Source: Ophelia neglecta (taxonomy: Eukaryota). Taken from it: 64,000 bases of DNA. Both the position numbers and the translations under genes were made by a program. This document shows positions 13,901 through 43,600 of the stretch, in pieces. The first letter of the stretch is position 1; each line of letters begins with the position of its first letter. The notes under the pieces were generated by a model. That model saw only the letters and a program-made list of their open reading frames with translations, was not told the origin of the DNA and did no database searches. The DNA lies in contig OZ260666.1 in the NCBI GenBank assembly GCA_965285935.1, positions 43,152,001 to 43,216,000 of the forward strand. The letters are read 5' to 3'.

Positions 13901-16900
13901 TAGTGTAATGTATGTTATCTGAGTGAGTGAATGATACTTTTACATGTTTATGGTATTTAAACGTGAAGTATTGTAGGACTAAAGGAGCCTTTACTTGATA
14001 ACACCTGTCAAATGTGAACCCAATAGATCTAGTGCCCTTTTTGTGTTGTATGGCAGACGGACCAATTGTAGTTGACAAGGTTTGCCTTGAGGGCCATCTG
14101 GTGAGCAAGGTTCACCACACCTACATGAACACATGTACAAGGAGCTAACCAGAAACATCTCATATATCAGACCTCGGCAAATAGCAGAACCTCTCTTATT
14201 ATTAGTATTTTTATATCCTATGGGGTTTCTTATGCTGTGTCTGTTTCAGGAGATGAGGTTTATTTTTGAAAGTCTCCTCCCAAAAAAACAATATTGTATT
14301 TTGATAACCAGCTAGTTTATCAACAAGGGACTGACTTGTCTTTTTTATTTATCAAATAACCCCAAAACAAACTGATATAGAACTCTGGTCCTGCCTACCC
14401 ACTTATCTGGTCTGGAGAAATCACTGAAATTAAAGTACTGAATACTATTCAAATATTGAAGCTCACACCGGTTTGTTTGTGGACAAATACCGCCTGGACG
14501 GTGTCACAGGGTGGCACATTGACACTCGCAGCGGTGTCATTCTCCAGGTAGATCTCGTCAGAGCTCGCTGATCAGCTCAATTTGTGACAAGGATAAAAAC
14601 TAATGCTATGACAACAACATGACATGTCAACTGACTACAGAGCATGTATAAAGGTAAACCTCATTGTCAATCTGATATTATCATGACCTCAAGGACTTAG
14701 ATGGAGATCACTGAATGGGGAATTTAACAGGTTAATAGCTCCCTAATGGAGGAAATTCCTGTTGTGTTGGAATGTCTCTGGTAAAAATCAGAAAACTGGA
14801 TAGGTGACTCACACTAAAGCTATCTTAGACCAGTCTGGGCGCGAGTGTGGGGCGTTGGGCATGGGGCATGGTGCAGGAGGGGGGGGGCGTGGGGAGTGAG
14901 ACTGGGTTGTCAGAGTGGGTTGTCAGAGTGGGTTGTCAAGAGTGGGTTGTCAAGAGTGGGTTGTCACGGTGGGTTGTCAGGGTGGGTTGTGAGCGTGGGT
15001 TGTGAACATGGGTTGTGAACATGGGTTGTCACATAGGCTGTCGTTATCTGGTACGGCCCCTGTGTACTACCAATATTGGTAGTACACAGGGGCCGTACCA
15101 GATAACGACAGCCTATGGGTTGTCAGGGTGGGTTGTCAGAGTGGGTTGTCAGGGTGGGTTGTCAGGGTGGGTTGTCAGGGTGGGTTGTCAGGGTGGGTTG
15201 TGAACATGGGTTGTCAGAGTGGGTTGTCAGGGTGGGTTGTGAGCGTGGGTTATGAGCGTGGGTTGTGAATATGGGTTGTCAGGGTGGGTTGTCAGAGTGG
15301 GTTGTCAGAGTGGATTGTCAGGGTGGGTTGTCAGGGTGGGTTGTGAGCGTGGGTTGTGAGGGTGGGTTGTGAGGGTGGGTTGTGAACATGGGTTGTCAGG
15401 GTGGGTTGTCAGAGTGGGTTGTCAAGGTGGGTTGTGAGCGTGGATTATCAGAGTCGGTTGTCAGAGAGTGTTTTCAGAGTGGGTTGTGAGCATGGGTTGT
15501 GAACATGGGTTTTCAGAGAGGGTTGTGAGGGTAGGAGGTGAGCGGGGGTTGTGAGAGTGGGTTATGAGAGTGGGATGTGAGAGTGGGATGTGAGCATGGG
15601 TAGTGTGTGTTGGTTGTGGGCGTGGGTTTGGTACATGGGTAGTGTGTGTTGGTTGTGGGCGTGGGTTTGGTACATGGGTAGTGTGTGTTGGTTGTGGGCG
15701 TGGGTTTTTTACATGGGTAGTGTGTGTTGGTTGTGAGAGAAGGTTCAGGCATGGCAGTTCTCAGTGACATTTCCTCAGACCCAGAGCGTGAAGACCTTGA
15801 CATAGACTATATCCAGAAAAATTGGCAGCAGTCTGCTTGATTCCAATTTCATGATTATCTTACTGATATTTATATACATGGTGTCCATATTTTTCTTATT
15901 TGTTATACACCATTAGATCAATTTCATTTGGCATTTTCCCATCCTAGTCAGAGCCAGGACTCTTTCCTTAGTTAAGACATGTTTATTTATTCTTGTCCCC
16001 TAATGACCATGTTTAATCTAGAGGGGTCCTTAGATCTCCTGGAGGGCTGTAATAAAACCAGTCCAGCTGTACTCCAAGGTCTCCTATCAGATTGTTACAG
16101 AGGTTCTAGTGGACATTAATACAGCAGCTGGTCCTGCTCTTAGTATCATATCTGAAGTGAGCTTTATATTACCTGTGATCAGGTGATACTGCCCCTTGGC
16201 ACTATCCAGTTCATAGGGTCAGAGGGGCTAACCAATGGTTTATTGGCCCTGATTGAGTACCTGTATAGTATATAAATTGTCTACATGGACCTTATCTACC
16301 AGTGTCATGTGTCAGCAGTAGACACTGCTGGTCTTAGGTTAGTCACACATGACAGTCTCTACCCTCCACCAGATGGAAGCTGCCAACAAGAAACTACTAA
16401 AATTGGTATTAGATTATACCCAGCCCACTTGTATTTACATCTAACAAGACATGAGCCATGTGCTGCAGTCTCTGTCAGACAAATTAACAGGAATGGTTCA
16501 ACAAGTAACCCCCTAGCTGAGGGCCATGCCCGCCTTAATGAAGAGATGTTAGTACCACCTCAACCCTCTTCTTTACTCCAGCTGTAGGTCACAGCCAATG
16601 TACATGAATCTATGAGACAATATAAGATTTAACTCTCCCCCCCCCCTCCCCCCTCCCCTGCCTCCATCTGCTGCTACCCCATCCTCTGCTCCTCTTATAA
16701 TTCTGAATCACACCTAATTAAGAAATCTAAGGTAATTGCCAACATCAGGAATGTATAAGTGCAAAAGAAACACATGTCTGTGGAAAATAAAGCATGTTTT
16801 TTAACTGCTCTAAGCATTGAAATTATTAGAGTGACAGTAAAAGAAATTATCTGAAGATTGGCTGATAGAAGGACATTTTTGAAACATAAGATGATAAAAA

Positions 16901-19900
16901 AGCTGCTCAGATTAACTGATTGGAAGTCATTCATGAAATGTCTCACAAATGTATTTTTTTTAAGTGCAAGATGCCGGTGGCTTTCAGAAGTGGTGTGCCA
17001 ACTAGGCTTAAATATACAGCTTGGGAATTTGATCAGCCCCACCAAAACTTATTAAAATTAGCCTTTGATGATTGAGAAATGGGGGACAATGATTTGCATG
17101 CCTGCATGTCCCATGTAGGTGAGCCTTGGTAATGAGTACCGGGAGCCTGGTAATGAGCATGTGTTAACATTCAGCCAGATCTCCACTGCCTCATGCCCCA
17201 GACCACACCCCTTGTATCTGATGTGCTAACCCCCAGCTGTCAGATACCAGTATCTCCTGTCTACAGACAACAGGAGCACTGCTCCCACGTGCTTGATATC
17301 CTAGTCCAGCCTACCAGAAATGTCAAAGATCCTTAGATAACTAGAAGATCATATCCTATATGTCTTGCCCTTGCTGAACTTGCTCACAAGGCACAAAAGG
17401 TGAACCAGCTAACATTCCCTATTGAGTTTCAGTAAGGCTGTGGTACCATTGGCCAAAGGATTGTGAACTTGTAGGCGGCTGTGTAGAAATGATCTCCTCA
17501 TGGCTGTTACCAGGTTTGATCTGTAGAGTACACAGGTGTTGCTGGATGAGAAGACAGGCCTGATCTTGTGTCATTTTATATCCTAATTTCTTCAGGGAGA
17601 ATTAGACAGTGTTGAACTACAATTAGCCAGCATACCTCCGGGTAAAAACCTTCCCAGTGCTGTATTAGTTATTTTAATTGAATCTAGCAACAACTGTATG
17701 GCTAAATATAACTTTTACTTCTAGGGGTTATTTTCCTGTTGAAATAAGAAATTTCAGCCCACTAAATAACTTTGTAGAGATTGTAGAAGTCATTGGGTGA
17801 CCTTTCAGTAAGATACTTGACCCTGCATTAAGTTACTCAGTCTTACAGGTTAGTTGTTTAATACTGAGAACTGTGATAATATGATGGTATCACCTATTTC
17901 TCATCCATCATAGTTTGACATTCAGATATATCAGCTGGGTGGTGTGTTCTGCTCTGTCTGCCTCCCCAGCCATACAGTGCCTACAGGTACCTACAGGTAC
18001 CTCCAGCCCCCAGGCCCCCACAGATCTACCTGATACATGGCCCACTGGAAGTATATATGATAAGGATACCACAAGCTGGCATTCTTTGTCAGTCGGCAGC
18101 CTGCCAAATCCTCAGGCTAAATCAACCATTTTCATATCTCTAACAAATGAACGACCTTGGCATGCCTGTAATGTAATGGCCTGCTAAATTGTCTCTCACT
18201 CCGTTTTTGTTATTAATGAGTTGAGCTTTAAGGTGATCTTTAAGTGTTAAGTCCAGTTACTGAATGGATTAATCAGGGTCTGAGTACAGTAATGGTACAA
18301 ATAATAGGCAGCTAAGTGATTACTCCATCTGTTGATCTGAGTGAAATGTCAAATTGCCGTGATGTATGGTATTTTGTCAAATTGACAGACAATTAGCAGA
18401 CCAGCTGTAAACGTACAGATGTGCTGGGTGCATTCCTCAATGATAAATTAGTCATTGTTAGCAGCAACCAGTTAGGAAGGATGTCAAATCTCTTACATAC
18501 ACAAGAATATGTCAAGAGCATTTAGGGTAAATCAGCAATGAGATCATTTCTCAGGCTATATCTCTCTAATACATGCTGTGATAGAACGTAGATGATAAAG
18601 ACGATATAAATGTGTATTTAATATCTGTACATGTATGTGCCTTGCCAGATGACTGGTATTAGGATTGCATCCAACAGAATTGGGGAGTCCCAGGACATCA
18701 GAGGCAGTCAAGAAGGCGCCATTTGACGAAATGTTGATTCTGGCAGGGAGTGGTGGCAGCCTCCTTTGGGCCTTTACTGTACAAAACAGGGTTGATTGTC
18801 TGTTACTGGAGCCTAGATGACAGACACCAGCTGGGATCGACCCTTGTAGATCATCAGATCCACTCCACCATTACATATTAACTATGGTCAGAGGAGATTA
18901 TAATGTTGAGAATCTACCTGGACGTATACCCCCTCGGGTTTGCTGGTGTTATTGTAAACAGACACAATTTCTCATCTTGTCAGTGTTTGAAGTGGAGCTA
19001 GCAGGATATATTGTTGGTGTTGAGTAGATCTGTGGCTGTGATTGATTTACATGGGCTAGCTCTAGAGGCAGACAAAGATGCTAGATGAGAGAGATAGGTA
19101 AGACAGTAGGCCAGTTACTAGGACCACTAGAAAATAAAAAATCACAATCCTGCAAGTCTGATTCTGTAGCACCAGGAATCAAATAAGTGCGTCTCCTCTG
19201 GAGAAATGTAGCTTAGTCTGTGAGTGGAGTGTAAACCACTGATCAGTGAGCAATGGGCTTGGCCTTTAAATGGAGTAGACTCGTTATTACTCAACTGTCA
19301 GGATTGTGTTTTTTTGCCTTAGAGCATTGGCATAGGTGTCATTCTTTGCCACTTTCCACTACTTTTGTTGTATTCTGAGGGGATGATGAAGCCTGCAGAC
19401 TTGGTAGGGCCTGGTTCTGCAAGCCTCAGACTTTGAGGTGAGACTTTGAGCCAGCCTATCAGCTGCCAGACAGCACCTCTCTTGATAAAGTCAGCTTCAA
19501 GGAGGTACAAAAAGTGGGGTTTGACTCACAGTGTTCGGTGGCTGTTTACCAATGATTTTCCAACCAACCTGGTTCCGATCATCAGGGTAGCTTTACGTTA
19601 TGAGCAGATCGTATCTAAGTACAAATCATCTTCTACCATCATGTTTAGAACTCAGGGTAGGCAGTAAACTTCCTGAACAGCCCACCAGAAGACACTGGCA
19701 TACTGCTTAAAGCAGGGCTGCCAGCCATTCATTCATCATTGGTGGCAGTTCACAGCATTTGTTTTGGGAGATTTCCCTGTGGAGTTAATGAGAGATTGAA
19801 GGAGCTGTTTGCCTTACAAGATTGACTGCCATAGCAGACATAGTCAGGGAACGCATAAATTGGTGGTTGACTGGCCACAGTGCAGCTGTGTGGAACTGAC

Positions 19901-22900
19901 ACAAGATTGACTAGACATACGGCAGGTATGCCTCCAGTGGAGGGCTTGTTGGACTCCTCAGAAACACCTCTCACATCCCGCCAGTACAGAAACTATTCAG
20001 CACAGGCCTTGGAAAGCTTTATCTTCTTCCTGACTACACAATGACAATTCATTCCCGTGATTCGGGATATGAAATATTAGGACAGAAGAAGGTGAAACCC
20101 AATGGGTGCCACCGAGGGTGAAATGTGTTTTCAAGGCATGTATTGTAACTCAAGGATTCACCTCAAGGAGTGTGCTTGAAAGTTTTCTATAACCCATCAA
20201 GAAAGGAATAAACCAGCATCATGGTCAAGAGACTTTAATTACCTTGTTAATGCTGGTGGTTCACAATAATATTATACCTTCAGTGATGGTGGGCCTTCAC
20301 AGTGTATAAATTATTATATTGTACTAGTGACCTAGTAGTGGGAGTCAAATGTACCAGAGGTGGTGAGGTCAGAGTATCAAATCTCTCTGGTAAACTGATA
20401 GGGACTATAGCTACCTCTAGGCGACACCTGGTTAAACCTACATCCATGTGTTTTTTTCTCGGGGTACCGTAGTAGGAAGTATTGCATGCCTGGAGGCAGT
20501 GCCACCAGGCCTGGTCAGGGGTGTAAACAGGTTGCCTGTTTGACACTCACCCACTTCCTTCCTAACTAATACATGCAAAACCTACCAGGCAAGCGTTTAC
20601 CAGGCTACGCCACACAGCACAAAACCCACAGCACAAAACTCACACCACAAAACTGGTGTTGAGGCTCGCTGGTTCAGTAGGAGGAGTGGGATATGGCCCG
20701 CAGCAACTTTTTCTGGCCATGTGCTTTATTGTTGGATTATAATCTGGATTAGAACAGAAATACACTATCCAGACCCGGCTGCTTCCAGATCAAATCATAG
20801 ATAATCATATAATCTATTGATTTTGTGATCAGATCTTCTAGAACAATCTCCTGATTTGGAATATCTTTTTGGAAATTGGAAAAGTGTGATCATGTATATA
20901 AGGCAATAGGCAGCCTTATGTATGTATTCCTGGGGTGTTGGTTGGTTTCATCGGACATTGACCAGAAAGGGAAATGTGTCCTGAACAGGAAGGCCTTTGA
21001 CACATGAAGCAGGAAAAAATAATGTAGGCATAAAAAAAAACCCATATCTATATACAATGTGAGCTGTGGTGGGTGACACATGTTTGTATGGGACATGCAC
21101 TGTTTGACGGAGACTCTTCCTGAAGGAGGAGCTAAAAGAGGAAAATAATAGTAGACATCAGCCAAAAGTATGTATGAAGAGCTAAAGTCATAACATGTGT
21201 AAGAGTAAAAGTTTTCTAGAAAACTTGACTGTACTTAGCCGTCTGAGGATACTCTGAGGAAATTATTCACAAGTGCAAGAAAAGTTTAGCTATACATTAA
21301 CAGGGAAACAAGACATTTTTCCGGTGAACTTGAACTGATGCAGTGTTTCTAGATTAGCTGCCTTTCTTAAACCTACAGTGAACTGAGTGGGGAAAAAACC
21401 CAGAGACCGTGCCGTGGATTTATCGTGTTTTTTACAATGGATAGGATTTCTTATTTTTACAGTGTATTAGTTGAGCATTTTCTCCACTAAAAGCCTCTAG
21501 TCCCTGCTATTAAGAGAGGTTTTTCTCATTTTCTCTGACATTCTATTGTGATCTCAGACAGATGTGGGTTATCTTGATGTTCACCATTGTGATATTGTAA
21601 TAATTCCATAAACACCACATTCCAACATGGTTGAAAAAATGGACCAGCTGATTCAGAACCTTGTGCAACTTGGAAAGCGTTACCCAGGTGAATGGATTAT
21701 TTATTGTGTTTACCACAACTTGGGTGATAGTTTTCATGGTTTAAAGTGCTTTATGCCAAATTATTGAAATGATGTAAACTTTTATGGGGATATGATTGAA
21801 ACTGGAATGTAAACACTGTTTAAAAAACAATTGGGCAACAAAGGCAGTGTAGGGTGGGAATTTACTGTTTGTATTAGGGTTCATATATCGTATGCTCAAT
21901 TAATGTGTTTACTACAAATTGAACCAAATTATTATACCAAATTTAATACATAGAAAGCAGGTTTTAGGTCATTTGCTGCCCCGGGAAAAAATGTAGCCGA
22001 AGCGAGCAGTCTATCAGTAGTCATTTGAGCACGGTGCCAGGCGGCCTCTTGTTTGGAATCCTTCATTTCATGTCAATTACTGGTAAAACTGACTGCCCTA
22101 GCCCACTCTATATAAAGATGCCACCTCATTATTAGATGTCTGCTCCCAGTGTCAGATTGGAATATTAAATCCCAAAATAGGACCAATAGTTTGTGGATTC
22201 TGTAATTATTCAAGCCTACAAGAATGTTTTCGGGTGATTTGTTGCACACTTTTCATTTACTTGCCATGTTTCCAATTAAGATGGCTCACGGGTTGAATAT
22301 GTGCTGTGCCTGTGCACAAGTGCAAATATTAAAACATAATATATCAAGGAAACTTTAAAAGAAAAAACTGAACATTAGTTGTAGTGGTGCTTTCTCATAT
22401 TATTAAGAGAAACTCACCTTGTAAAATATCATATGTGCAAAAGTATTGGTTATAAATATCTCCATATTGAAGTATACCGTTATTATCTGTCCCATATGTG
22501 AACCTTTTTGTGAAGAAGGTTATTAATTTTACTTAGGAAAATGTGTGTTGGGTGTATATTAATTATTCCCTATGCGTTGCCTCATTGTAATCCAGCTGGT
22601 ATGGCTCTGAGATGGTTATGAGTTGACAGCTGGGAGTGTAGTGAGAGGTTTCCTCTGTTTATTAGTACAATGGGTGTAGAAAGATGATCTCCAACCCAGG
22701 TTTCTGACTTGATACTACCTGTACACCCAGCTGACTACAGATGCCAAATTCTAGAAAAATCTACCCTCCAACAGATACAATTCCCTCCCTTCTTGCCCTC
22801 TTACATAGGATGGATAAACATTCCTGCCCAAAACATTTTGCCTATTAGATATCAGTCCATTACGCCATCAGTTTTGCCACTAGCTCAGATGTTTGAAGCA

Positions 22901-25900
22901 TAAACTGACCTTCTGCGCTATCTCAATGGTTCTCTTTAACCATCTATTACCAGGGGAAAATCTGTGCTGCTCATCACTGTGAGCCATGGCTTCAACTGAA
23001 GTTGGTCCCAAGAAACTTGGGTGGCAGAAAAACGCAAGTGTGTAGAAATTGGCCAGTTGCTAGTCAGGTTGAGCTATGATGTGAGCCAATCCCTCCAAAA
23101 TTGAGTTAATTCAGACTCCATGTCAGTGCACATTTCAACAAGTCAAACTCAAAAAGAGCCAGACTTGCAAAAAATGGCCAAGACCTGAATGAAGAAAAGC
23201 ATGTTTACACATGGCTTTCTTTAATAATGTTGTTTTGTTTATTATTATTTCTTAATAATAGATTGAGAAATGGAAATAATTGTTGAATGAGTTATTAATG
23301 TTTTTACTTTATTTTGCAGAGGGCAGTGATGTGGTACACCACACTCCGAGGTTCGTCCGCGACACATCTAAATACTGGTATAAACCACACATCTCCCGGG
23401 AAGAAGGTAAGAAAACCTCTTGTAAATCAACCTAGGTGTGAGTCATTGAATGTGTTGTATCGAGGAAGTGTGAAGTAGGTCTTGAAAGGCATTCACTGAT
23501 GGACAGTTATGTCTCTTTAGTTCTTACCATTGCAGAATTTTTCGAAATTTTCTTATCCCAGTTTAACAAGTGAAGGAATCAAAGGTTAATTTTATCATGC
23601 TAAATTGCATGTGTACTGCAGTCCAAGTTAGTCTATATTCACTGTGAGAACATAACATCAGTCATGTCCGTCCGTAGATCAATTGTGAATGAGACAAATA
23701 ATTGGGATAACTCATCAGGGGCTTGTTTTGTTCTTGCAGCTGGTAAATCAACGGGTGCCGGCTTTAATAAGTTGTTAAGAGTAGCAGCAGCACCACAATA
23801 AAACTGATTATGTAGTCTTATGTGCTGGCAGCAGTATGGTATCTAGGCTCATCAGACTTAAGTGTTCTCCTGTCTCGCAATGCAATTTACTTTTTAGAGT
23901 TTCTGGGAAATCAATCAAAAAGTGAAAGCTGCAGTTTCTCACTCTTGTTATTTCTTCTTTTTTTACTGACGTTTGATGCGATTCGACAAATCAAATACCT
24001 TTCAGCTGAACCAGTTTGATTTTTACCTCCAGGATACTATCAGAATCATGATTTGTATAAATGATACTGTCTTCTAGGAGGAAAGGGGGTAATTAAGACT
24101 GATTATATATGTATATCAATCAATTATTATTTTATTGGCTGTTTAACCTTTTATGATGCATTGGAATCCAGACCTGAATCAATCTGGAGTCATAAGTCCA
24201 GTCCTGTTCTGTAGATTGTTGATGTACATTAACTCTTTCACTGCTAAAGGTTATGCAAGCTGCATAACTGTGTTCGCCAATCTACTTCCATTAATAGGTA
24301 TCAGATTTAAGGCTTTTCCAAAATAGTATTCATTTTTTTAAAGGTGTCTGTATTTAACTGTGACATTCCGTAGGTAACGAGTGAAGCTACTTATGGATTA
24401 TTCTGGCAGTTGTCATAGTAACTGTACTTGTTGTGCTACTTATTATGGTGTTATAAATGGCAAGGAAACATATTGACATATTGTCAGCATTGGCAGTGAA
24501 AGGGTAATGTTGAAAAAAGCCGATCTTGGCAGTGAAACAGTTAAGAAATATTTCAGTCGATCTGTTTTAACTTTGCCTTGTTTCTGTTTCTAGCAATAAC
24601 CATTCTGAAGGACAAGCAGCCAGGTACCTTTGTGGTACGAGACTCTAACTCTTTCCCAGGCGCGTTTGGTTTGGCGGTAAAAGTGGCACAGGTGCCACCC
24701 AATGTAACCACCAAGGGTGGTGACCCAGCGGCAGAGCTAGTAAGACACTTCCTCATTGAACCAACACCCAAAGGAGTCAAACTGAAGGGATGCAGCAACG
24801 AACCAGTCTTTGGTGAGAATACACAAGTGATGCTTCTATTTTATATGGTAGAATTTTGCTTTCTACCATCAGTAATTGAAGTATGAAGGTGAAACTGTTA
24901 CTATGAGTTGATTAACTCTGAACCTGGAAAGATACTTTGCTGGAAGTTGCTCACAGCCAAAAATGAATTTGCTGAAATTATCGAACTTGATTTTAGATAA
25001 ATTCTACAACAAACAACTCAGTCTTATTATTAGCCACCTAAAAAGTCGTGCTGACAGAAAATCCTTTATTTGCACTGGTTCAAAATGTTATTAATATATT
25101 AAAAAATGGCAGTAAACAATGTTACTATAAGGTAGTTTTGTATCACCTTAGTATTATGGTTTTTATCCTATTTCATTGAAGATTTAATATTAATGTTTTG
25201 TATTTTGTATTCAGGGAGCCTGGCTGCCATGGTTTACCAGCATTCTATCACTCCTCTGGCACTGCCTTGCAAGCTACTACTTCCAGAAGTTGGTGAGTAG
25301 TATTGATCAAATAGATTTAATACGGCAGTCAATTAGAAGTAGTTTAGCTTACTCCATCAGATGGATTTAAGAAGGCGTGTTCTTGGTGACTTTTTTTTGA
25401 ACAAATGATAAAACAGCCTTGTATAGAACTTGTACATGTAATGTACATCTTTGATCCTATTTTTTAATCTTCATGAACATGTATACTATGTAATTAGGCC
25501 TTTTTAGGTATAATTATTGTACATGAATGTCATTAGAAGTATGTAGGAAAGACATAATAGTATCAAATGTGTAGTGTGAATAACACTGTAAATTGTCATG
25601 TAAGTTCCATTACAAATACTTAATAAAGTTAAATTAGAACAATAGACTGAGGACACATAGACATTCACCTCTGAAGTATTTTAACATACAATTTATGTAC
25701 AGGACTGGTATACACTTGTACTCTTAATGTGGCTTCTGTTGTGCAATATTTGTATGTGGCTTTAGTATTATGTAGATGTATGTATATTGTGTGCAGTGCT
25801 GCTAACCCCTGACAATAAATATCACAGTGATAACATGTTATAACAGACTGATAACCTGTTAAAGCAGACTGATAACCTGTTATTGTACATTGTTATGGAC

Positions 25901-28900
25901 TGTGTTAGTCTTGGTGTAGTAATGAACACAAATTAAACCTGCCATACAGAGATTATATACACACTGACAACAATTAATAACTGGAGTGCACAGCTGTACA
26001 TTGAGACTTGTTCTTTTTTCCATTACTAGTTTATGATATTGACCCTGTACACAAGACTTTCACCATCTCATTGTGTGTGTTTTGTCCATTTTTGCGTCCT
26101 CAGGACATCAACAACATCGACGTCAGCACTCGCAAGGGAACATGACTGTTGACAGCCACAGTTCTGGAGGAGTAGCTCATCTAGCCGGTTTGTCTATTTT
26201 GCCCACCCTCCTGCTTTAGACTAGTAAACTGTCTGTTCTCTGGGCTATACTGTCTGGATGGGTCTCTAACCCTCTGTTCCCGTGGGCATATTCGCTGGGG
26301 TATAACCTCTCCCTATTATATATACCACATAGCACACCAGACTGCAGTAAAGCTAACTTTACTTTATTTTTCCATCTGTTCCATTAGGGACTCATAACAT
26401 AAAATGGGGAAATAGATGGATATTAACTTTAGCAATATGACTATCTAAAATTATCATTGAGCCCATCTTATCAATAGTTGACTAACCAAAACCATCCTGG
26501 AGGCCATCTTATCAGTAGTTGGACTATCCAAAACCATCCTGGAGGCCATCTTATCAGTAGTTGGACTATCCAAAACCATCCTGGAGGCCATCTTATCAGT
26601 AGTTGGACTATCCAAAACCAATCCAAAACCATCCTGGAGGCCATCTTATCAGTACTTGGACTATCCAAAACCATCCTGGAGGCCATCTTATCAGTAGTTG
26701 ACTAACCAAAACCATCCTGGAGGCCATCTTATCAGTAGTTGGACTATCCAAAACCATCCTGGAGGCCATCTTATCAGTAGTTGGACTATCCAAAACCAAT
26801 CCAAAACCATCCTGGAGGCCATCTTATCAGTACTTGGACTATCCAAAACCATCCTGGAGGCCATCTTATCAGTAGTTGACTAACCAAAACCATCCTGGAG
26901 GCCATCTTATCAGTACTTGGACTATCCAAAACCATCCTGGAGGCCATCTTATCAGTACTTGGACTATCCAAAACCATCCTGGAGGCCATCTTATCAGTAG
27001 TTTAACTATCAAAGCCCTCCAATGAGGCCATCTTAGCAGAAGGTTGATTATCCTAAACCCTCTGTGAGGCCATCTTATCAGTAGTTTGACTATCCAAACC
27101 CAACATTTAGGCCATCATATCAGTAGCTTGACTATCCTAAAGCCACCTTGAGGCCATCTTATCAGGAGTTTGACTAACCTAACCCACCATTGAGACCATC
27201 TTATCAGTGAGTAGTCTGAAGTATGTAGTAGTATGTCTTAGTCTAGTAACCGTTAATACCCTTGGTAGAAAGTAGTCCCAGTATTAAATTTACAACTAGA
27301 ACATACAATACTTTCTCCTAATAACTTCTTAGCCTTTAAGCTAACAAAAACAGAACTAATCAAATTTTGAGATATTTTTGTTGTCATACTGCCAGAAGAA
27401 ATAATTACAGGAGCCATCCTTTGAGCTGGAGTCTCGACAGGGTGTCAAGCTCAGCCTTATCTGAAATGGTCAATTTGTCTGTCCTGACAATTTCTCTTAT
27501 TGGTTTCCTACTTTGCCTACATGTACTCGTGTTACTGTGACTAAGGCGTATTTGTTTGCTATAACCATTTTGCTGCTATTCTTTTTCAGGTACACAAATC
27601 ATTTGTACCCGAGACTGCTGAGTGCAATAATAACTTTGTAGTTTGTTTCTTTTAAAGAACTGACATTTTTTCTCTAGATGAGGCAGTGTTGGAACTTGAC
27701 CGTCAGCAGTATAAACGACACTACCAGGCAGTTGTAGCTCAGCAGGGGGAGCCAGGAGGTATGACCTTGTCATGGCTTCCAGCTTGTTACCCATACCCAG
27801 CTTGTTACTAACACAGGCTGGCCTATTCCTAACACAGGCTGGCCTAGTCCTAACACAGGCTGGCCTAGTCCTAACACATACTGGCCTACTCCTAACACAG
27901 ACTGTCATAGTCCTAACCCAAGGCTGGCGTACTCCTAACACATACATACTGCCCTAATTCTAAGAGAGACTGGCCTATTCCTTAAACGGGCTGGCCTAGT
28001 CCTAACCCAAGGCTGGCCTAGTCCCAACACAGACTGGCTTAGTCCCAACACAGGCTAGTCCTAACACATACTGCCCTAGTCTGCCCTAGTTCTAAGAGAG
28101 ACTGGCCCAGTCCTTACACAGGCTGGCCTAGTCCCAACACAAGCTGGCCTAGTCCCAACACTGGCTGGCCTAGTCCCAACACAGGCTGGCCTAGTCCTAA
28201 CACTGGCTGGCCTAGTCCCAACACAGGCTGGCCTAGTCCTAACACAGGCTGGCCTAGTCCCAACACAGGCTGGCCTAGTCCCAACACAGGCTGGCCTAAT
28301 CCTAGAACACACTAGCCAAATGCTAACTGTTTATAGTCTATATGATAGGACTGGCCTTGTCTAACGGAGACATGCCTAGTCCTAACACAGACTTGCCCAG
28401 TACCATGCTCTAGCTAATACAGGCTGTGTTCCTGATACATGTACCTCATACATGTACAGAGCATGTAGCAATACACAGTGTAACAATAACATTATAATGA
28501 GCCCAAATCAAATGGAAATAATCTCCTGTATCAGTATTTGTAATCATGTGTACAGGAGATTGATAACCAAATGTAGTTAAGGCTTCCTGTATACGATTGC
28601 TGCCCCTTTATGGTCACTTATCATGATGCAGGTGACCAAGGGAGTCAGGAAAAAGTTTTAAGCAGGCACTTTGATTTTATGAATTTGTGCTTCTAAATGT
28701 GTCTGTTTTTATTTTCATAAGTTGAACCTGTTGGCCCCTGCTATGAGGCACACTGGATGGCTGGGCTCAGTATACATGGTAGTCAGCAGGTCCAAATGCT
28801 GTAATCTGTCCAGAGGTCCTACAACTACATGCTAAAACTGCCATTCTGGTCAATTTGTCAAGGATGCTAAAGTTTTTTTTTCTTGAGAAATAAATGTTCA

Positions 28901-31900
28901 CCAAAGCACATTCAGTTTATAAACACACACAGTTATGTACACTTGTTATTTGATCTGAAGAAAACACATCTGTTTGTTATGACAAATACACTCATGTGCA
29001 CATATTATTTGATCAGACATAAAAACCACAACTTCTGTTTTGTTGTGAACCAGAGAGAACACTACATCGTGTTCTCCCCTGACAGCCTTGTTATATGTTC
29101 TCCTCAGCAACTCTTGCCAAGCTCAGTTTAGTAGTAGCAAACAAGTCTGTGTATTAACTGTTTGTCATTGTACTACTTAGACATCTGTCCATGCTGTTTG
29201 AACTCCTTCATATATACACACCATGTCACCTGATAACACCACTATGTAGTACTCCAAGGTCTCTCACATTAATAAAGGGCTTTCTATAACTTTTCAGAAA
29301 TTGTTTACAAACACACATGATGAGCGTAGAAGATGAGAATGTTGCTAGATGTTCAATTGCATGCAAGCAGTATATGATTTACTTTTTCATAGACACACTA
29401 GGGAGCAGCAAGTCCCACCAGTACAGCGCTGCCAAGCGTATGCAGAAGGTGATTGGATCTGGTGGAGAGGCCTATAGTAATAAGCGTCCGGCGTCTGCAC
29501 CGAAGGCTCAGACCTCTCACAGCCAGAGCAGGGCGAGCCAGGATATGTGGATTGACAATGCTCTTGAGTCACTGGAGCGCGAGTCTGCCGCTCAGAGTAG
29601 CTCTAGAATGGCGACACAAGAAGGCACCACTCAATTCTCAAACAGAGCCGATGGAGCATCTGGTGTCATGGAAACAGAAGTGGAAACTTACGACTGCTAC
29701 ATAGACCCACAGCAGGGCTTGAACCCAGCAGGGCACGAAACCTATGACATAGGGGTCGTAACTAGCTCAGGAGACATGATAACTAGGTCAGGGCCCACCG
29801 TGTCCTCCTCGGGCAAATCTCAGGAGACTGCCTTCAATTTTGACAGCCCAGGGGAGGCTAGTAGAACAGATACATACCAAGCCAACATGAAGGAGAGGAC
29901 AGGCCTGGATCAGTATGTGGGCTTTGAGGACGGTGGTGAGAAAGTTTATATGTATCTGCAAGCTCCATATTGGTTTATCTAACAACTATCAGCTGAAACT
30001 ACTGAGTTCCCACATCTACTAGCATCTTGAACAGTTACTGGCGATGATAACAAGACTGAAATATAGCATGGTGTGTTTGGACAGACACCAGGATTTGTCA
30101 AGTTTTATGTCTTAAGTGTAAGGTGCATTTGAAGGAGATCAGACCAACCCCAGTGCAACTCCTAAAAGTATAAACTACCTACACTGTATAGGAAAATAAT
30201 CAAGTGGCGCTGTGTGAATGAAAGCTTTGCTCCTGATATTGTGTTGCTGACTTGATGCTAATCTTTATATTAAGAATATTAAGTAATCAATTCATTTTTT
30301 ATGCAGTGAGTGCTCTAAAAGATGTAACCAAATGTTAACAATTCTTACTTAGACCCCAACATTTTTTATATCATTTTAACTCCCCAAACTTGGATACAAC
30401 AATTTATATAATTTTTACTTTAAATTAACAAACTTTCATTTGGATCATTCGGCCTATTACGGTTTCCAGTGTGCTTTCAGTGTTACAACATGGTCTTTTG
30501 TGAGGAGTCTGACAAATTGTCTTCATATTACCTATTAACATGTGTACTTTTTTTACAGATAAAAATAGCTCCTGTTTGGAAAATCTTTTTATGTTTCAGG
30601 AAACTCATTTTTTCTTTGAAGGATTAACCAGAATATTGCAATATTATTTCAAGTAAACTCACATATTATTTGTACGGCTACGTTTTTCCATTGTCTCCTT
30701 ATCATTATCCTAGATTCTCAATAATAATGATGTGGTAAGGATGTCTTCCTGTGTGTCAGTAACTGTCTCTCTCACCTTCCACGTTGCATGTTTTCCTGAA
30801 CATGAAGTAGAGTGATTGTAGCAGTCAGTGTTTGTCAACCTGTCATTTGATTTTTACAATTTTGTTTATCATTCAGAGTCCCCTGAGCAGGAGACATTTG
30901 ATACAGTCGGTTATGAAGGTAGGCTCAGCTAGCTGGAATGGCCAGTGGACTCCTTTAAGCTTTCATCCCTCCGCAATCATTCTTTGGTTTTCTCTAAATG
31001 TCCTTGTGTTCTCTTATAAACACTGTTATGGTATTAGTAGACTAAACCACGGAGCTGTTTGTACCATGACATTATTCACCCACTGCATCATTCTTCTCTG
31101 AGAACAGGAGTGTCAGTGTTATAGAACCAAGGATTTTTCCAGCTGTGTTATTCTTGTAATAAACAATAAAATTGACGTTTACTGCATTGATAACCATGCT
31201 CGTCTTAGGCTTGTACTAAACACCATAGAAAACGGATTGCTGAGATATTTTTTATTCAAGTATTTCCGGTGTGATGATGCATGGTAGTACTCATAGTAGT
31301 TAGCTCTAGTGGAGCTTCATTTCAATAAGAATATAAAGTTGGGAAATATTTAAATTTAAGTTAATTGTATATTAAGTAGATTAGATGTTTTTCTTTGTCT
31401 TTGAGTTGGCAAGTGTGAAATGATAATCTGTTATTTGAATGACTTGCATGATACGAGGAACATATTGTAACTACATGATAAATTAACTTGACAATATTTC
31501 ATTCGCTAGAAGCCTTATTGATTTGATGTAGTTGTTGGCTATATTACTGAACTATTAAACAGTTAAGAAGTGTATGATCTATTGATTAGTGGTAGTAATC
31601 TATGGGTTGTTATGGTTGTTAATTACATGCTCTGATTATATTAATGATACAAAGCATTCCTTAAAAGCTCCGACCTTAGGTCATTTGATGACTTCCTACA
31701 TGTTGATCCACAGACATATAGATGCTCCAGTGATTAAATTCATTAATACAGTGGTTTATATTCAGTTTCAGTTGATGGTGGCTACTGACTACTCGATGGT
31801 TATTTGACTAGTGTCCATGAAATGATTTAAGCAGGGTTGAACTGATTTAGATATGATTTGAGCAGATTGACCAAATTGAGATATGATTTGAGCAGAGTTG

Positions 31901-34900
31901 TCCCGATTGTGATATGATTTGAGCAGGGTTGACCTGGTTGTATTTTTGTTTACAGATCCAGTAGATGTGGACACGGTGGACGGAGCCGTGCCGAGTTCTG
32001 CTGCACAGCTTCTGGCTCAAGGAGCAGGTAGGTCATTCTTCTCTCAGCCCAAACATAACAGCTCTACTAGGATATTGTTGTCATCTATGTCAAGTTTGAT
32101 TCTATTGATCTGTTGATTTGCTGTCAAGACAGTTTGTTAAGTAATGCAGTGACTAAGATGCTGTCCATCACAGATTGGTGTCAGGATAGAAGAGCTGATT
32201 GTATTGTTGTTTTGCAGCCTGTAATGTGTTGTTCCTGTCCAGTGTTGACATGGAGAGTCTGACGGGACCTGAGGCAGTGGCCAAGGCAGTCAAAGATACG
32301 TTTGACAACCCGCTATCTAGCAAGACCACCGTCGTCCACTTCAAGGTGTCCTCGCAGGGAATCACCCTCACCGACAACAAGAGGAAGTAAGTAGTATTTG
32401 GACAAACACCCTTTCTGTTGTTTAAGGGTATTAATGGGAATTAATGACAATTAGTCTGAAGTGCATATGATCTTGTATATAATGAAATTTGTTATGATAT
32501 GCAATCATACATTTTAGGTTGTTTTTCCGTCGTCATTACCCTGTGAACTCTGTGACTTACTGTGGGATGGATCCGGAAGATAGAAGGTTAGTGACTCGCA
32601 ATGTCTGTACAACTATTGGGCCAGTCAAAAACAACTTTAGTCAGGTGTATTTCTCTGAATGCCACTTAATTCAGACCTCTCAGTTATCATTTTCTTGCTA
32701 TACTATGTACTGTAATGTTGTCATTAATAACCCCCCTCACCCTTTCCTTGCCTGGAGTTTTGAGGTACAACCAAGGAATCAAAGGTCAATTATAAAGAAT
32801 TATATGTTTTCCTTTTTGCACTGCAGAATTCATCAAGCTGTGAAGAATAAATATGGCTCATTATTTAAAGAAAATACAGTTCTGTGGTCTTGTGCAAAGA
32901 GATGTTCTTAAACTTCTACCTAAAGTGTCTTTTGCAGAGATTATACAAAGAGTATCATAATCATCTTTAAAACTTTATGTGTGTCATATGAAATTATTAA
33001 GTGGCTAGTACTGAGAGCCACCCAAATACAATGTTTGTAAACAGTTACCATGCAAATGGCTGTAACTTTTTGGAAGCAAGGCCGTCAAACCAGAAGTAAC
33101 TTGAATATCTACCTTTTTACATTGTTGATTGATTTGAAGTGGAACTGATAGCAATCTACTCCCAGTTGGTAGATTTGCTAAATTTTTTGATGGTTCCAAG
33201 TGCCATCGAACCTGATTAGTTAATGATTTTATAGACTATTGGGTACCTTGGAAGCCGAGGTGATGCCTTAAGATTAGCACACAACCATCTTTGATAGTTA
33301 TACTGCAGGAAATGGTTAACTCTGCTACGAAAAGAAAATTGTTGGTGTGTAAGTGGTTGTTATCAATTGCAAGGTGACTTTTAAATACATGTAGCTTACA
33401 TATTATAACTTTAGTGAACTGTTTATACAAATGTTATCAGAGCTGAATGCTGTTTCAACTCTTGAATGGTACATAATGCACACAAATATTCAGGTCCACC
33501 TTCCAGAATCTTCTACAGAAAGTCTCAATTATTTTTATCACCTGTTTTTCTTGACACTTGCTGATGAATTATGCCATAAAACACCTCATGTCATGTATGC
33601 TCTGGTTAACATTGACAACATTATTCTAACTTCTCATAAACAAGTTGTCGAAAAAAAGGTTGTATATGATTAATTTTCCCATAATTGTATCATTTGGAAT
33701 GACTAACTTTTGGCCAATTACCAGAAATATTCGACTTCATAACAGCAAGCACCGGAGGTGCATGACAGCACAGCACACTCTCATAACAAAATCTTTCAGC
33801 ATGGAACCGATTTTTAATCTTTAAATTCTTTAAAGAATTAAAAGGCTGACCAATATTAATTAAGAGCTAAGGATTGATATCCCTTTGTTTTCTCTGATGG
33901 CCACATCAAGAGGTTCATCTATGGCATGCCATTTATACATTACTATATTTTGTTTGCAGTGATTATGTTATAATTTCAGAATTTCAACTGAAATTATACC
34001 TCTTTTTACTTTACTGTAGGTGGTCTCAGGCCAATGAGGAGTCGGGTGTGCCCATGAATGCAAAGTGAGTTGAAGAGAGGAGGCCATCTTTTTCGACCTC
34101 TCCTGCATGCCATCAACCAACCCTACATTTTCCTGGCTAGTTCTGGTCATTTTGATACCTTAAATCATTGTTTTTTCCCCAGAGGACTTTAAACCCTTGC
34201 ACATATTTATATTTTTTAAACCATGTGTACCGGTCTTTGGTAATACACTGCTATAATAGGATTGGTTATTTTGCATCATCACATGCATATCATTAATTAA
34301 GGTCTTAATTTGAAATTTGAAAGGCAATAATAAATCAAGAAATCATAGCATGCAACTACCTTTTAGTGGGATGATGTACATGTATAAAATACTGTTTGAG
34401 CAGAGATATAGACATCTGCTATTTGCTGGCCTGAATTGCTAAATAGAACCAGTTTTTTAAACTTGATTGAGATTGCAAAATGCAAATTGGGATAATTACA
34501 GAGCCCTTTTTTTTGGGGGGGGGGGAGTTATCAATCTAATTAGCCTCATGCACTAATTCGAACTGTCTGATTATTTTGAGGCACATCTTGTGATGTTGAC
34601 ATTCACTCCTGTCATTTTGAACCATACCGTCTTTGCATGTCAATGTACAAGGGGGGGAGGGGGGATATTTTTTATCTGGTGCACCTGTTGAATGGCTGGT
34701 ATGTTTCAGGATATTTGGGTTTGTAGCTGAGAGGTAGGCTGTATATTATAGCAGCATGTTCCTTGCTATTCTATAGAGGTGCTATAATGATAATGGAACC
34801 ATAAGTGCATTGCAGGCCTCTTTACCTATATATGTCAGCAATTTCTTCAAATCTGCATTTTTTAAATCCTGTCACCTTTCCTTTTTCTTGCTGAGCCCAT

Positions 34901-35511
34901 CGATAAATGTGAAATGATTCTCTCCAAATGTGTGGCTTTATTCTATATATTTTTGTTGTTTTATTAGTCACATTTTATGTTAAATTACATTCTTTGTACC
35001 CATGTATGTTAACAATATTTATGTTATTGCTTGAGAGCCAAACACTTTGCCTGAATTCAACAGTCTGTCTTTCAATCTATTTGCTTCATTATTAATTTTG
35101 TTAAATATAAGATTATGCCATTAATATAATGAACTGCATGCAGCTACATGTATACTCTTGTTTGCCATACAAGTTTTCAAAACATATTTGATTGGATCAA
35201 GAGTTTACTTTAAGAAGGGTTAGATGTGTGCTCATTTGGATGAACTCTGGCTTGTTGGGTTACTATTTACATGTACATGTGTATTAATGTGCAGCATTTG
35301 TCCTAATGGAGTTATTTTCATGACCTTTATTACACAACAGTAACTTACTCTTTTTTTTAGGGTGTTTGGTTTTGTGGCAAGAAAGCAGGGAAGCACCACC
35401 GACAACGCATGCCATCTGTTCGCTGAGCTTGATCCTGATCAGCCAGCCACAGCCATTGTCAACTTTGTGACAAAGGTTATGATTGGCCAAGGCAGGATGA
35501 TGAGGTCATAG
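1881..35511 (+). CDS. TNS: Tensin (central region + SH2 + PTB); N-terminal PTP/C2 exons not seen in this window
   Basis: Exons 1881-1997, 2404-2655, 3010-4470, 5734-5852, 6134-6314, 8210-8275, 9176-9469, 10473-10573, 10994-11382, 11625-11751, 12027-12170, 12391-12494, 13022-13167, 23320-23406, 24594-24812, 25215-25292, 31956-32027, 32218-32386, 32518-32586, 34020-34064, 35361-35511. All are GT-AG, phase-compatible and in one frame to TAG at 35509-35511. Tensin signatures: [100 protein letters not shown]. Confidence 0.95.
2404..2655 (+). CDS. TNS: Tensin exon ([16 protein letters not shown] motif)
   Basis: ttccag| ... |gttggg; matches the tensin HTQGPxDGSLYA motif. Confidence 0.88.
3010..4470 (+). 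CDS. TNS: Tensin large central exon (Ser/Pro-rich, short coiled-coil-like segment)
   Basis: 1461-nt open exon inside ORF 2961-4508, ttttcag| ... |gtaaac, phase 1-1. Confidence 0.9.
7927..8064. mobile_element. Tc1/mariner-type MITE
   Basis: TA|cagttgaacccctcatgagagaccac ... gtggtcttacatcaggggttccactg|TA: terminal inverted repeats with TA duplication. Confidence 0.75.
9176..9469 (+). CDS. TNS: Tensin central-region exon
   Basis: cacag| ... |gtttgc, 294 nt, phase 1-1, coding-like GC content. Confidence 0.75.
10545..10865 (+). repeat. Tandem repeat (~43-53 bp) built from an exon end and its splice donor
   Basis: About 7 copies of (c)aggcct...gggtaagttactgtgtgttct. Confidence 0.8.
10994..11382 (+). 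CDS. TNS: Tensin exon with GTGTLQSH repeats
   Basis: tttcag|ATG ... GG|gtcagt; internal 24-nt coding repeat. Confidence 0.8.
14902..15595. repeat. 13-bp G/T-rich minisatellite (GTGGGTTGTCAGG and variants)
   Basis: Directly visible tandem array, degenerate at the 3' end, interrupted at 15032-15117. Confidence 0.95.
15032..15117. repeat. Perfect 86-bp palindrome (probable foldback/MITE insertion)
   Basis: cataggctgtcgttatctggtacggcccctgtgtactaccaat is followed immediately by its exact reverse complement. Confidence 0.95.
15595..15735. repeat. 39-bp tandem repeat, ~3.5 copies
   Basis: Unit catgggtagtgtgtgttggttgtgggcgtgggtttggta. Confidence 0.9.
21627..21687 (+). CDS. Candidate alternative initiating exon for a short SH2-PTB tensin isoform ([20 protein letters not shown])
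   Basis: ccaacATGG context, in-frame TAA at 21609-21611, donor CAG|GTGAAT in phase 1, matching the SH2 exon acceptor at 23320. Confidence 0.5.
23320..25292 (+). CDS. TNS: Tensin SH2 domain exons (23320-23406, 24594-24812, 25215-25292)
   Basis: [42 protein letters not shown]...[49 protein letters not shown]. Confidence 0.95.
24233..24540. mobile_element. TTAA-flanked (piggyBac-like) MITE
   Basis: TTAA|ctctttcactgctaa ... ttggcagtgaaacag|TTAA, with an extra internal copy of the right end at ~24491. Confidence 0.6.
26104..26187 (+). CDS. Candidate tensin cassette exon 1 in the SH2-PTB linker
   Basis: Pyrimidine-rich cctcag| ... |gtttgt, 84 nt, phase 1-1, open ([28 protein letters not shown]). 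Confidence 0.6.
26463..27208. repeat. 42-bp minisatellite with higher-order variants
   Basis: Unit ccaaaaccatcctggaggccatcttatcagtagttggactat; near-identical copies to ~27000, then diverged copies. Confidence 0.95.
27678..27758 (+). CDS. Candidate tensin cassette exon 2 in the SH2-PTB linker
   Basis: tttttctctag| ... |gtatga, 81 nt, phase 1-1, open ([27 protein letters not shown]). Confidence 0.6.
27808..28400. repeat. 21-bp minisatellite
   Basis: Unit ctaacacaggctggcctagtc and variants. Confidence 0.95.
29393..29935 (+). CDS. Candidate tensin cassette exon 3 in the SH2-PTB linker
   Basis: tttttcatag| ... |gtgaga, 543 nt, phase 1-1, inside ORF 29317-29982, coding-like composition. Confidence 0.75.
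30877..30918 (+). CDS. Candidate tensin cassette exon 4 in the SH2-PTB linker
   Basis: attcag| ... |gtaggc, 42 nt, phase 1-1 ([14 protein letters not shown]). Confidence 0.55.
31826..31935. repeat. ~31-bp degenerate tandem repeat, 3-4 copies
   Basis: gatatgatttgagcag(g/a)gttg.. recurs just upstream of the acceptor at 31956. Confidence 0.7.
31956..35511 (+). CDS. TNS: Tensin PTB domain exons (31956-32027, 32218-32386, 32518-32586, 34020-34064, 35361-35511)
   Basis: [27 protein letters not shown]...[42 protein letters not shown]...[43 protein letters not shown], collinear with the vertebrate tensin PTB. Confidence 0.95.
34710..34737 (+). CDS. Candidate micro-exon or alternative last exon (K)IFGFVAER
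   Basis: gtttcag|g ata ttt ggg ttt gta gct gag ag|gtaggc; phase 2-2; near copy of the start of the last exon (VFGFVARK); read-through gives AGG TAG. Confidence 0.5.
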
Positions 35512-40646: not shown

Positions 40647-43600
40647 TTACTCGGTACTGCATACCGACCGAGGGTGTTCTAACATGGATACTTTGAGACC
40701 TAGGTTTTCATCCGCGTGGTTTTCATTTCCATGGTTTACAAACGCATGGTTTTCACTCCCGTGCATTTCATTGTTGCTGTGGTTTTCACTCTCTTGGTTG
40801 TCATTGCCACTGCACATGGCTCTCGCCTGCGGGCTTCTTGTCCTAGACGGCAATATAAGAAAAGATCAAATTAGAGAGAAAACGTTCAAAATTGTGAAAA
40901 TGGAACTACCATGCAGAAGTATAAAATAAAAATAAGACAGCAGACTTATTAGTTGATGAGGGCGAAAGGTAGGTTTAACACGGCCTTTTTTGTAGTCATA
41001 TCACTGGTTTAAAAAAAAAATGCTTTTCATATTTATTTTACCAGTTAAGAATGAAATGTAGAAAGTAATCTTTTTTTTAGATTATATTCAGCACAAAAAC
41101 CCTTACTGTGCATCCACTGAGTCCACATTATAACCCTTAGGTCCATTACTTTTGTCTTTCTTGTTGTGAATTAAAAAGCCAAGTTTTAGGACTACAAAAG
41201 ACTTTTGCTTGTAATGAGACATTTGCAGTAATTTTTTTCAAATTATGATACTGTAACATTGACAACAAGGCTTATCTCCGCGGTTCCCCCCCAAAAATAT
41301 CTAAATAATATTCAAGCGTCCTTGTATCTTTCACAAACATATAATCGCGAACTTGCTGCCATCCGTACTTAGACATGACATTTTACTGTATTTTTCGACT
41401 TACGGGTACTTTATTTAATAAGAGAAAAATAAAAACATACAAAGACAGAGGAATGTAGACCGCATTTGTTCGTTTTCCACCATTTTGTACTTGTCTTCTC
41501 ATCAACTTACAAGCCAAAGCTCCACACACACCACCAATAATACCGGAAATGGCTACAGCCAGACCTAACACTAGGAATCAAACAATATATCTACCACTAT
41601 CCCTATCTAGTACAATTAAACATGGATTATCAAAATTTTGAGGTTTAAATTATGCGAAAATCAATCCAGATTTTGATGAATCATTCTGATTGTAATACAT
41701 GCGAAATTTATCTTCCTGAACGACAGTTAAGGGAATGAAAGGTTAGCAACAGACGTTTGAAGGAACCATTTTTATAAAATCTTAGCATTTGATTCGCTAG
41801 AAAAATAGGTCAACATCGAAAATTAAAGTGTGTTTCAATGTGTTCTCAATGAAGCTAGGTCCTACCCTCCGTTGTATAAGTAGTTCTCGAGTTCCAATTT
41901 CGACTAGACTCACTGTTCCCGATTAAGTTGACGCTACGAGCTGTTGGATTGCTTTTCGAAGCTGAGCAACCGTCAATCGCACACGTCAGGCTACAAGATG
42001 GCGTTCTCGGGCATGTCACACTACATTCGGAACAGGCGCAGGCTGGACAAGATATGTTTGGCGATGCTGGGCAAGCCGTTTGACAATCAGGGCACGTGAC
42101 ATTCATTTTTGGACAGGAGAGATTACAGTCGGGACAAATGTTATGTGCGCTGGGACAATCCAGTTGGACATTAGGACATTTGCAATCCGGGCATGTGAAG
42201 TCTAGCATTGGACAAATCAGTTTACAATCGAGACAGGTAAAGTTAAACAAGGGGGTGGGGATGAATGGCGGTGTAGCGGTAGGGGGTTCGATTGTTTGGT
42301 CGTGCCTTGTTGTGGGGACAGGATCGGTTGTTTGGACAGACTCGGTTGCTGGCTCAATTGTTGGAATAGTTTTGTTAACAGTGCAGAATCTAAAACTGCA
42401 CCAGGCTTGCCGTGGATAGTTTAGCTGGTATATATAAAAATTTCCCTGGTCGGACGGACACAGCTTCACCTGAAAGAAAGAAACAAATGCTCAAGACTTG
42501 CTATACATCTTTATGTTATAGGGGGCCCTATTATGTAGTAATAATAAGTGAAAACGCCCGTAGAAGTGTTACCCTCCAACTGACCTTAACGGCCAGTGTT
42601 TTGTAACAACAGTTTTGACTCCAATGAATACACGCCCTCATGGCCTTCACCTCAAAGTCTAAAAGAAAAGAAATGTATTAAAGCTCAAAACGTGACAGTT
42701 GTGTTTGCTTGTCAATCATATTTCAAAATTTGTTTAAGACTGTTCAATAGAAAATATGCTGTTTTTTTATAGCAAGTTTGTTAATGTCGGGTGTACAATT
42801 TCTTCTGTTTATGCCTATTATGTATTGAGAAAGCATACTCTTGAAAACCCGGTTAGCATACCTAACCTTTTGCTACTTTTAATGAAAACTAAACTAGGCC
42901 TATTCGCATTTGTTTTTAAGAGTTTGAACCCAAGTCTGGTGTAGATTAGGGTACATTATTTCATTTATTCGTGACCATTTTAACGTTAAATCAAATAAAA
43001 CATTCTTTTAAAAAATACAGTTAGACGTAATTTTTGGTAATAATCATTGCGAAATAAATGAGAAGACGAAAAATATACCATCTTCAGCAATATTTTTGGC
43101 ATATAGGTCTATTGGCCAAAATCCGTTGACCTCCCTTAAGGAAGCTAAAATTACACTTAGCACATAGTAGCAGCAGTAGTATAAAATGCACATTAAACAA
43201 ATATTTATATTACTGTTTAGGATTTCTTGGTGTTTCTTACTTGTTGGATGAGTGCCGTTAATGAAAGCCGTGGCGTGGGTTTGGCAGCGCCTGGCGGGAG
43301 GACAGGTCTCCGGGATCATGTCTCCCCCCGTCCCGTTAAACCGATACCACGCCTCTGCAATGAAAATAAGTTATGGCTTTTCCTTTGTACCTAGCGAAGC
43401 ATTCCCCTAATTTCATTTTTAACCTACCTCGGTCAATAATTTGGTTGTTATCACATTGTGGTGAGCTACTGTCAGTGTTTAAGATACTCCTGGTCGGATC
43501 GTCGAATGTGGTGTGCCCTCCCTCGGAGCAAATGTCTTGACCAGTAGCCAAAACTGCGCAAAATCAAATTTAGCCAATAAAAACCATAAGCCTAATATAT

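Follow-up and report, generated by a model that had tools for sequence, protein, structure and literature searches.

A large conserved exon, likely optional, between the SH2 and PTB exons of a tensin gene in Ophelia neglecta

Can the SH2-PTB tandem that closes tensin proteins be opened by splicing? The usual view holds this end of tensins to be fixed, with isoform variation mostly reported upstream, and a review calls it an evolutionarily stable scaffold (PMC12383349). We analyzed a 64,000-nucleotide (nt) stretch of the Ophelia neglecta genome (GCA_965285935.1, contig OZ260666.1, forward-strand positions 43,152,001 to 43,216,000; hereafter the window), in which the intron at 25293-31955 separates the SH2 exons of a tensin gene from its PTB exons. 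An earlier note had placed four optional exons in this intron, here termed exons A to D. Our analysis indicates that one of them, the large conserved exon C, is very likely real, that the three small ones are uncertain, and that optional splicing is likely. The compound reading, in which exon C is coding, is spliced into tensin and forms an optional cassette joining SH2 and PTB exons, is on balance probable.

Exon C stands out from the intron by its composition. Its guanine-cytosine (GC) content is 0.54, compared with 0.35 for the remaining intron after removal of two tandem repeats; no intron window of its length exceeds 0.40, and the GC content steps at both of its splice sites. A coding model specific to reading frame, for which 3,564 coding bases from the window served as training set, gave exon C a score of 0.141, the open frame upstream of it -0.158 and the read-through beyond its donor -0.077. 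The score of exon C was reached by none of 570 intron windows and by 12 of 1000 open-frame shuffles of its own letters, and a stop-free run of 180 codons was absent from all 300 simulated introns. The exon has one match in its own genome, with flat DNA depth. Two variants fall within it, both at third codon positions (K>K and E>D), which are too few to test selection.

Conservation at the protein level was found for exon C only. A full HMMER search with exon C against 1.84 billion proteins returned two matches. P0282, an unnamed protein of 165 amino acids (aa) on one 22,476-base contig, had an E-value of 3.6e-8 among these proteins and is 35% identical to exon C over residues 48-180. P0293, an unnamed protein of 146 aa on a 787-base contig, reached 9.3e-15 with a two-sequence profile of exon C and P0282. 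No shuffle in 1000 reached the pair score of either protein, and the pair matches persisted without the first conserved block (0/1000 and 2/1000 shuffles). The top-ranked match, P0281, was discarded as a repeat artefact: a single 39-residue stretch, repeated weakly seven times, accounts for its summed score. In the three sequences, two blocks are invariant, a helix block and the tyrosine motif G-L-D-x-Y-V-x-F-E near the 3' end. All three sequences then read G-G-E and split into short, unlike tails; in the window, G-G-E is the read-through of the donor GGTGAG, cut after its first G, and thus the donor of exon C is most likely common to the homologues. Judged by these sequence comparisons, exon C is very likely a coding and conserved exon between the SH2 and PTB exons. 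Other searches with exon C were negative: 137 pattern matches among metagenome contigs included none that was confirmed, a protein atlas gave no usable match, a profile against the PDB gave only chance-level antibody matches, and no Pfam family was hit. A structure model of the exon C frame, built on an alignment of three, had low confidence throughout, with a mean predicted local distance difference test score (pLDDT) of 37.

The intron itself belongs to the 3' part of a tensin gene, which extends on the plus strand from about 1,900 to 35,511 of the window. In tblastn searches with six tensins, the exon order followed the tensins of Owenia, Capitella, Ridgeia, Lingula and Haliotis. The domains were recognized by Pfam above cut-off as an SH2 domain followed C-terminally by a tensin-type PTB domain (PF08416), and the best named matches are tensins. 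Among the tensin family (TNS1-4 and the invertebrate tensin/blistery), the SH2 and PTB exons are 70-95% identical to annelid, brachiopod and mollusc tensins; the main SH2 exon, with a single match in the 762-Mb genome, has its best named animal matches by identity in Owenia (89%) and Capitella (88%), which points to a likely annelid. The first tensin matches of the window begin at about residue 286 of Owenia tensin; the PTEN-like phosphatase and C2 domains of the tensin N-terminus would be encoded upstream of the window. The phase-1 intron at the SH2 end has the same position as in other tensins, with a phase-1 donor at the place of 25292 in 10 of the 16 other animal loci inspected. Joining SH2 to PTB gives 178 codons with no insert and 428 with all four candidate exons, both stop-free, a difference of 250 aa. 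It is very likely that exon C is spliced into tensin.

Skipping of exon C is suggested by the linker that remains without it. Joining 25292 directly to 31956 yields a short linker, which the earlier note had called collinear with that of vertebrates; it is collinear with annelid, brachiopod and mollusc tensins, and it comprises 36 aa from L-P-C to A-A-C. The linker measured 28-57 aa, with a median of 39 aa, in 106 of 120 representatives, which were the best 120 of 821 matches among proteins of at most 2000 aa, with at most 15 members shown per cluster. Of 293 tensin proteins, 262 had a measurable linker, and since all of these linkers are 57 aa or shorter, skipping of exon C is likely. We are fairly confident that the exon is optional.

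The strongest alternative is that exon C, with or without A, B and D, is constitutive, so that this lineage would have a long SH2-PTB linker and no splice tuning. The splice-site scores of B, C and D are near those of the flanking ordinary exons, and exon C has been kept across about 65% sequence divergence, both of which would suit a constitutive exon. The phase symmetry suits it as well. The ordinary SH2 exons, of 87, 219 and 78 nt, share phase 1-1 with the 72-nt first PTB exon, and hence the symmetry of A-D is no evidence for cassette behaviour; only a phase 1-1 insert can keep the frame in a phase-1 intron, so the symmetry proves little. The term cassette, used in the earlier note, is an interpretation and not an observation. 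Against constitutive inclusion, however, the direct join restores a linker of normal length, no measured tensin linker exceeds 57 aa, and the acceptors of B, C and D, at 2.6-3.1, are weaker than the 4.4-6.1 of the flanking exons. We consider this alternative unlikely.

Exon C might also be the alternative first exon of a PTB-only protein that begins at an internal Met, or the alternative last exon of an SH2-only protein, and exon A might possibly be a last exon. The open frame from 29290 to 29979 passes both splice sites of exon C and has upstream ATGs, conservation begins only at residue 48, near a Met shared with P0293, and for TNS1 a short isoform is reported that starts from an exon of its own (PMC12753235); for exon A, the donor is weak. 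However, the coding score and GC content drop exactly at the acceptor and the donor of exon C, and this speaks for an internal position rather than a terminal one. The tails past the donor are unlike among the three sequences, as would not be expected of a last exon, and neither AATAAA nor ATTAAA was found within 1 kb downstream of A or C. Such terminal use of the exon is improbable.

The preferred reading of exon C as an optional internal exon leaves the three small candidates to be judged separately. Re-reading the intron, we could reproduce the four exons of the earlier note, with lengths of 84, 81, 543 and 42 nt, AG/GT ends, phase 1-1 and no stop in phase 1; exon D is also open in phase 0. 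All four keep the frame whether included or skipped. Enumerating open AG..GT candidates of a length divisible by three gave six rows, and the four rows in phase 1 were exactly A-D; this enumeration used a generic splice-site matrix, with thresholds chosen after the scores of A-D were known. Ten control window-strands of equal length, some of which contain real exons, gave 0-4 phase-1 candidates each, 10 in total (mean 1.0), and the reverse strand of the intron gave none. About one small phase-1 candidate per intron could be chance. The GC contents of A, B and D are 0.52, 0.54 and 0.48, levels reached by shares of 0.007, 0.0007 and 0.08 of same-length intron windows (0 for C), and their coding scores were reached by 3/635, 0/636 and 2/641 intron windows. 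Against open-frame shuffles, only C and D stand out and A and B do not, the scores of A, B and D being reached by 727, 189 and 23 per 1000; the test is weak for short exons, as 116 of 1000 shuffles reached the score of a true 72-nt exon. A further GC-rich candidate open in phase 1, at 28722-28778 (57 nt), was rejected for its weak AAG acceptor and for 818 of 1000 shuffles reaching its score, and another, of 21 nt at 30714-30734, lacks an open frame in phase 1. Compared with known junction inserts, A-D showed no convincing similarity; the best of 36 comparisons, exon A with the P. vulgata linker, was reached by 4 of 300 shuffles. We take exon D to be probably real and exon B to be so with a little less assurance, while exon A, the least certain, is doubtful, if nearly an even call.

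These grades bear on the idea that four independent cassettes uncouple a tightly packed SH2-PTB pair through as many as 16 spacers. Every subset of A-D does keep the frame (16 of 16, with inserts of 0-250 aa), as the earlier note had calculated, and each of the four candidates is rich in GC and, of its six frames, has its top score in the phase-1 one, the other frames holding stops. However, free combination, for which we found no support, presupposes that each of four uncertain exons is real and independent. A flexible linker is predicted even for the normal tandem, and the seven solved tensin chains that we found each cover SH2 or PTB alone. We regard this idea as distinctly improbable. An origin of exon C from a mobile element, from a nested gene or as a remnant, with A, B and D as chance pseudo-exons in a tensin that has only the short linker, is very improbable: the lack of a Pfam family or solved relative for exon C, the roughly one phase-1 candidate per control intron and the shuffle results of A and B fit such an origin, but the single genome match of exon C, its two blocks of protein conservation ending at the donor, the 0/300 simulated introns with such an open frame, the weakness of the shuffle test for short exons and the failure of any partner exon of another gene to stand out among the intron candidates speak against it.

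Several observations weigh against an optional, conserved exon C and should be set beside the evidence for it. Both its inclusion and its skipping are inferred; three sequencing runs behave as DNA of one sample, with evenly covered introns and no splice joints. Residues 1-47 of exon C align with nothing in P0282 or P0293, and that these homologues lie in tensin genes is an assumption. Among proteins of 316-2000 aa we found no full-length protein containing exon C, which is a weak negative. In one run, position 29928 shows an E>D allele that alters the invariant Glu of the tyrosine motif, and the helix motif had no match among solved chains. For A, B and D, which are too short for the large protein searches, the homology check proposed by the earlier note found no match among 187 tensins or 80 loci, and the chance rate in control introns bears on all three. 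The splicing-regulator motif TGCATG, with four occurrences in the intron and 2.3 expected, was uninformative.

Splicing at the SH2-PTB junction has precedents, which support skipping indirectly, but is uncommon in annotated animals. In gene models of Patella caerulea, an 11-aa insert is present at the SH2-end junction in four of six and absent from two; in the 16 remaining isoform groups (17 in all), the linker is constant within the species, which again counts against optional splicing. Single inserts of about 12-18 aa occur at this junction in gene models of P. vulgata, Mytilus californianus, Dreissena polymorpha and Capitella teleta. The Patella, Mytilus, Dreissena and Capitella inserts occupy the same site as exon C, but they add only about 11-18 aa. 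The tensin locus of another animal, L046, has two phase 1-1 copies of the linker/PTB-start exon (L046:7398-7475 and L046:7579-7653), apparently mutually exclusive, and a 48-nt phase-1 candidate at 5787-5834.

What would the two forms of the protein be? The short form would retain the ancestral flexible 36-aa linker, and the long form would place a predicted disordered segment of 181 aa between SH2 and PTB. A model of the Ridgeia SH2-PTB region (33 sequences) gave a pLDDT of 73-94 for most domain blocks, below 50 for residues 167-182, and a predicted template modeling score of 0.50. In this model the normal tandem looks like two domains on a flexible tether with no confident fixed orientation, and lengthening such a tether need not break anything. 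The spacer proposed by the earlier note holds up in its size, as inserts of 181-250 aa would be far beyond the total linker of at most 57 aa in 262 tensins; its uncoupling function is weakened by the predicted disorder of the normal linker. Since the conserved part of exon C consists of two short motifs, we read it as a motif carrier, which would act by adding motifs rather than by releasing a rigid SH2-PTB pair.

The first of the two motifs has the highest hydrophobic moment of exon C (0.71), and the low-confidence model places a helix over this block, consistent with an amphipathic helix in a disordered region. LD motifs have the consensus L-D-x-L-L-x-x-L. Exon C instead reads I-D-N-A-L-E-S-L, of the form I-D-x-A-L-x-x-L, which misses two positions of the consensus, and P0282 and P0293 have E where the exon C motif has D. 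Of the LD-like and Tyr-containing motifs that the earlier note had assigned to the four exons, the former pattern is thus confined to exon C and imperfect, and the latter applies to B, C and D (2, 7 and 1 Tyr) and not to A. The exon C helix may resemble the talin-binding site of tensin3.

Such a helix would likely dock on the helical bundle of an adhesion protein, with talin as the first candidate. Vertebrate tensin3 has, within its disordered region, a helix that binds R3, R4, R8 and R11 of talin and acts jointly with the PTB domain, which binds integrin (PMC9462884, PMC12637021). The tensin3 helix and the LD motifs of DLC1, RIAM, KANK and paxillin are short acidic amphipathic helices within disorder, as in exon C (PMC9462884, PMC12637021, PMC8287531); the exon C motif differs in being sited between SH2 and PTB. 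Binding of the exon C helix to talin is conceivable but doubtful. A complex prediction of the helix with a TLNRD1-like four-helix bundle, used as a stand-in for talin R8, scored 0.00 and counts neither way; the talin bundles of this genome are split over several exons. A 269-codon frame at L085:1039-1848 has a talin-type helical bundle outside the talin gene and is likely TLNRD1; the frame ends shortly past the four helices, so that an intron or a break follows. The conserved tyrosine may be a phosphorylation-dependent docking site, possibly for the SH2 domain of tensin itself, and both helix and tyrosine would lie next to the integrin-binding PTB domain. A wider proposal, unlikely as a whole, is that the lineage, likely annelid, has a conserved splice switch in the SH2-PTB tandem: exon C would supply a second docking helix of the talin type as well as a phosphotyrosine site beside the PTB domain, and would convert tensin between two adhesion modes (e.g. 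muscle attachment versus other tissues), and the smaller exons would fine-tune the spacing.

A large SH2-PTB insert is a variant of already known tensin splicing. In TNS1, a 13-aa insert enriched in the ventricle and bordering no annotated domain is a tissue-biased inclusion of a disordered segment in a tensin, as proposed here (PMC11296937). It lies upstream of SH2 and away from domains, whereas exon C is much larger and inside the tandem. In a search of titles and opening abstracts that covered few subscription papers, no spliced insert between tensin SH2 and PTB was described; small inserts at this junction are already present in gene models. The splicing of disordered, motif-bearing segments is well known in general, which limits the surprise. 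If true, a conserved 181-aa exon in the tandem would show that SH2 and PTB tolerate wide separation, and the SH2-PTB junction would be a recurring site for new exons in spiralian animals. The locus would offer a natural means of asking whether integrin adhesion depends on the closeness of SH2 and PTB.

Table 1. Features of the tensin gene and of the intron between its SH2 and PTB exons (window coordinates)
Feature	Position	Strand	Details
Tensin SH2 exon 1	23320..23406	+	87 nt, phase 1-1; tblastn with six tensins; splice ends read
Tensin SH2 exon 2	24594..24812	+	219 nt, phase 1-1; Pfam SH2; 89% identical to Owenia tensin
Tensin SH2 exon 3, SH2 end	25215..25292	+	78 nt, phase 1-1; donor opens the intron studied; tblastn
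Candidate exon A	26104..26187	+	84 nt, 28 aa; acceptor 7.1 (strong), donor 0.6 bits (weak)
Intronic tandem repeat	26439..27208	.	42-nt unit, about 18 copies
Candidate exon B	27678..27758	+	81 nt, 27 aa, 2 Tyr; acceptor 3.0, donor 3.7
Intronic tandem repeat	27808..28304	.	21-nt unit, about 23 copies
Exon C	29393..29935	+	543 nt, 181 aa; disorder predicted; homologues in two unnamed protein records
Amphipathic helix motif in exon C, W-I-x-x-A-L-E-S-L-E-R, LD-like	29548..29580	+	invariant in 3/3 sequences
Tyrosine motif at exon C 3' end, G-L-D-x-Y-V-x-F-E	29902..29934	+	invariant in 3/3 sequences
Candidate exon D	30877..30918	+	42 nt, 14 aa, 1 Tyr, micro-exon size; acceptor 2.6, donor 5.1
Tensin linker/PTB-start exon	31956..32027	+	72 nt, phase 1-1; tblastn
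Tensin PTB exon	32218..32386	+	Pfam PTB; tblastn
Tensin PTB exon	32518..32586	+	tblastn
Short tensin PTB exon	near 34020-34066	+	tblastn
Last tensin coding exon (PTB end and stop)	35361..35511	+	tblastn

Elsewhere in the tensin gene, the large upstream exon at 2961-4505 contains the LD-like motif L-D-E-I-L-N-E-L-L near 3129-3155, which is kept in Owenia, Lingula and Haliotis tensins and is a candidate ordinary talin-binding site. A tensin disordered-region frame at 10910-11476 has a short repeat of the G-T-G-T-L-Q-S-H type, and a 10-kb phase-1 intron (13170-23319) precedes the SH2 exons. Outside the gene, two similar cysteine-rich frames with repeated C-P-x-C motifs lie on the minus strand at 41858-42490 and 49157-49828 and are likely tandem paralogues, the latter having no Pfam match. 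Two similar long open frames lie on the plus strand at 58833-59621 and 63434-64000, and the first matches the thioesterase-like family 4HBT_2.

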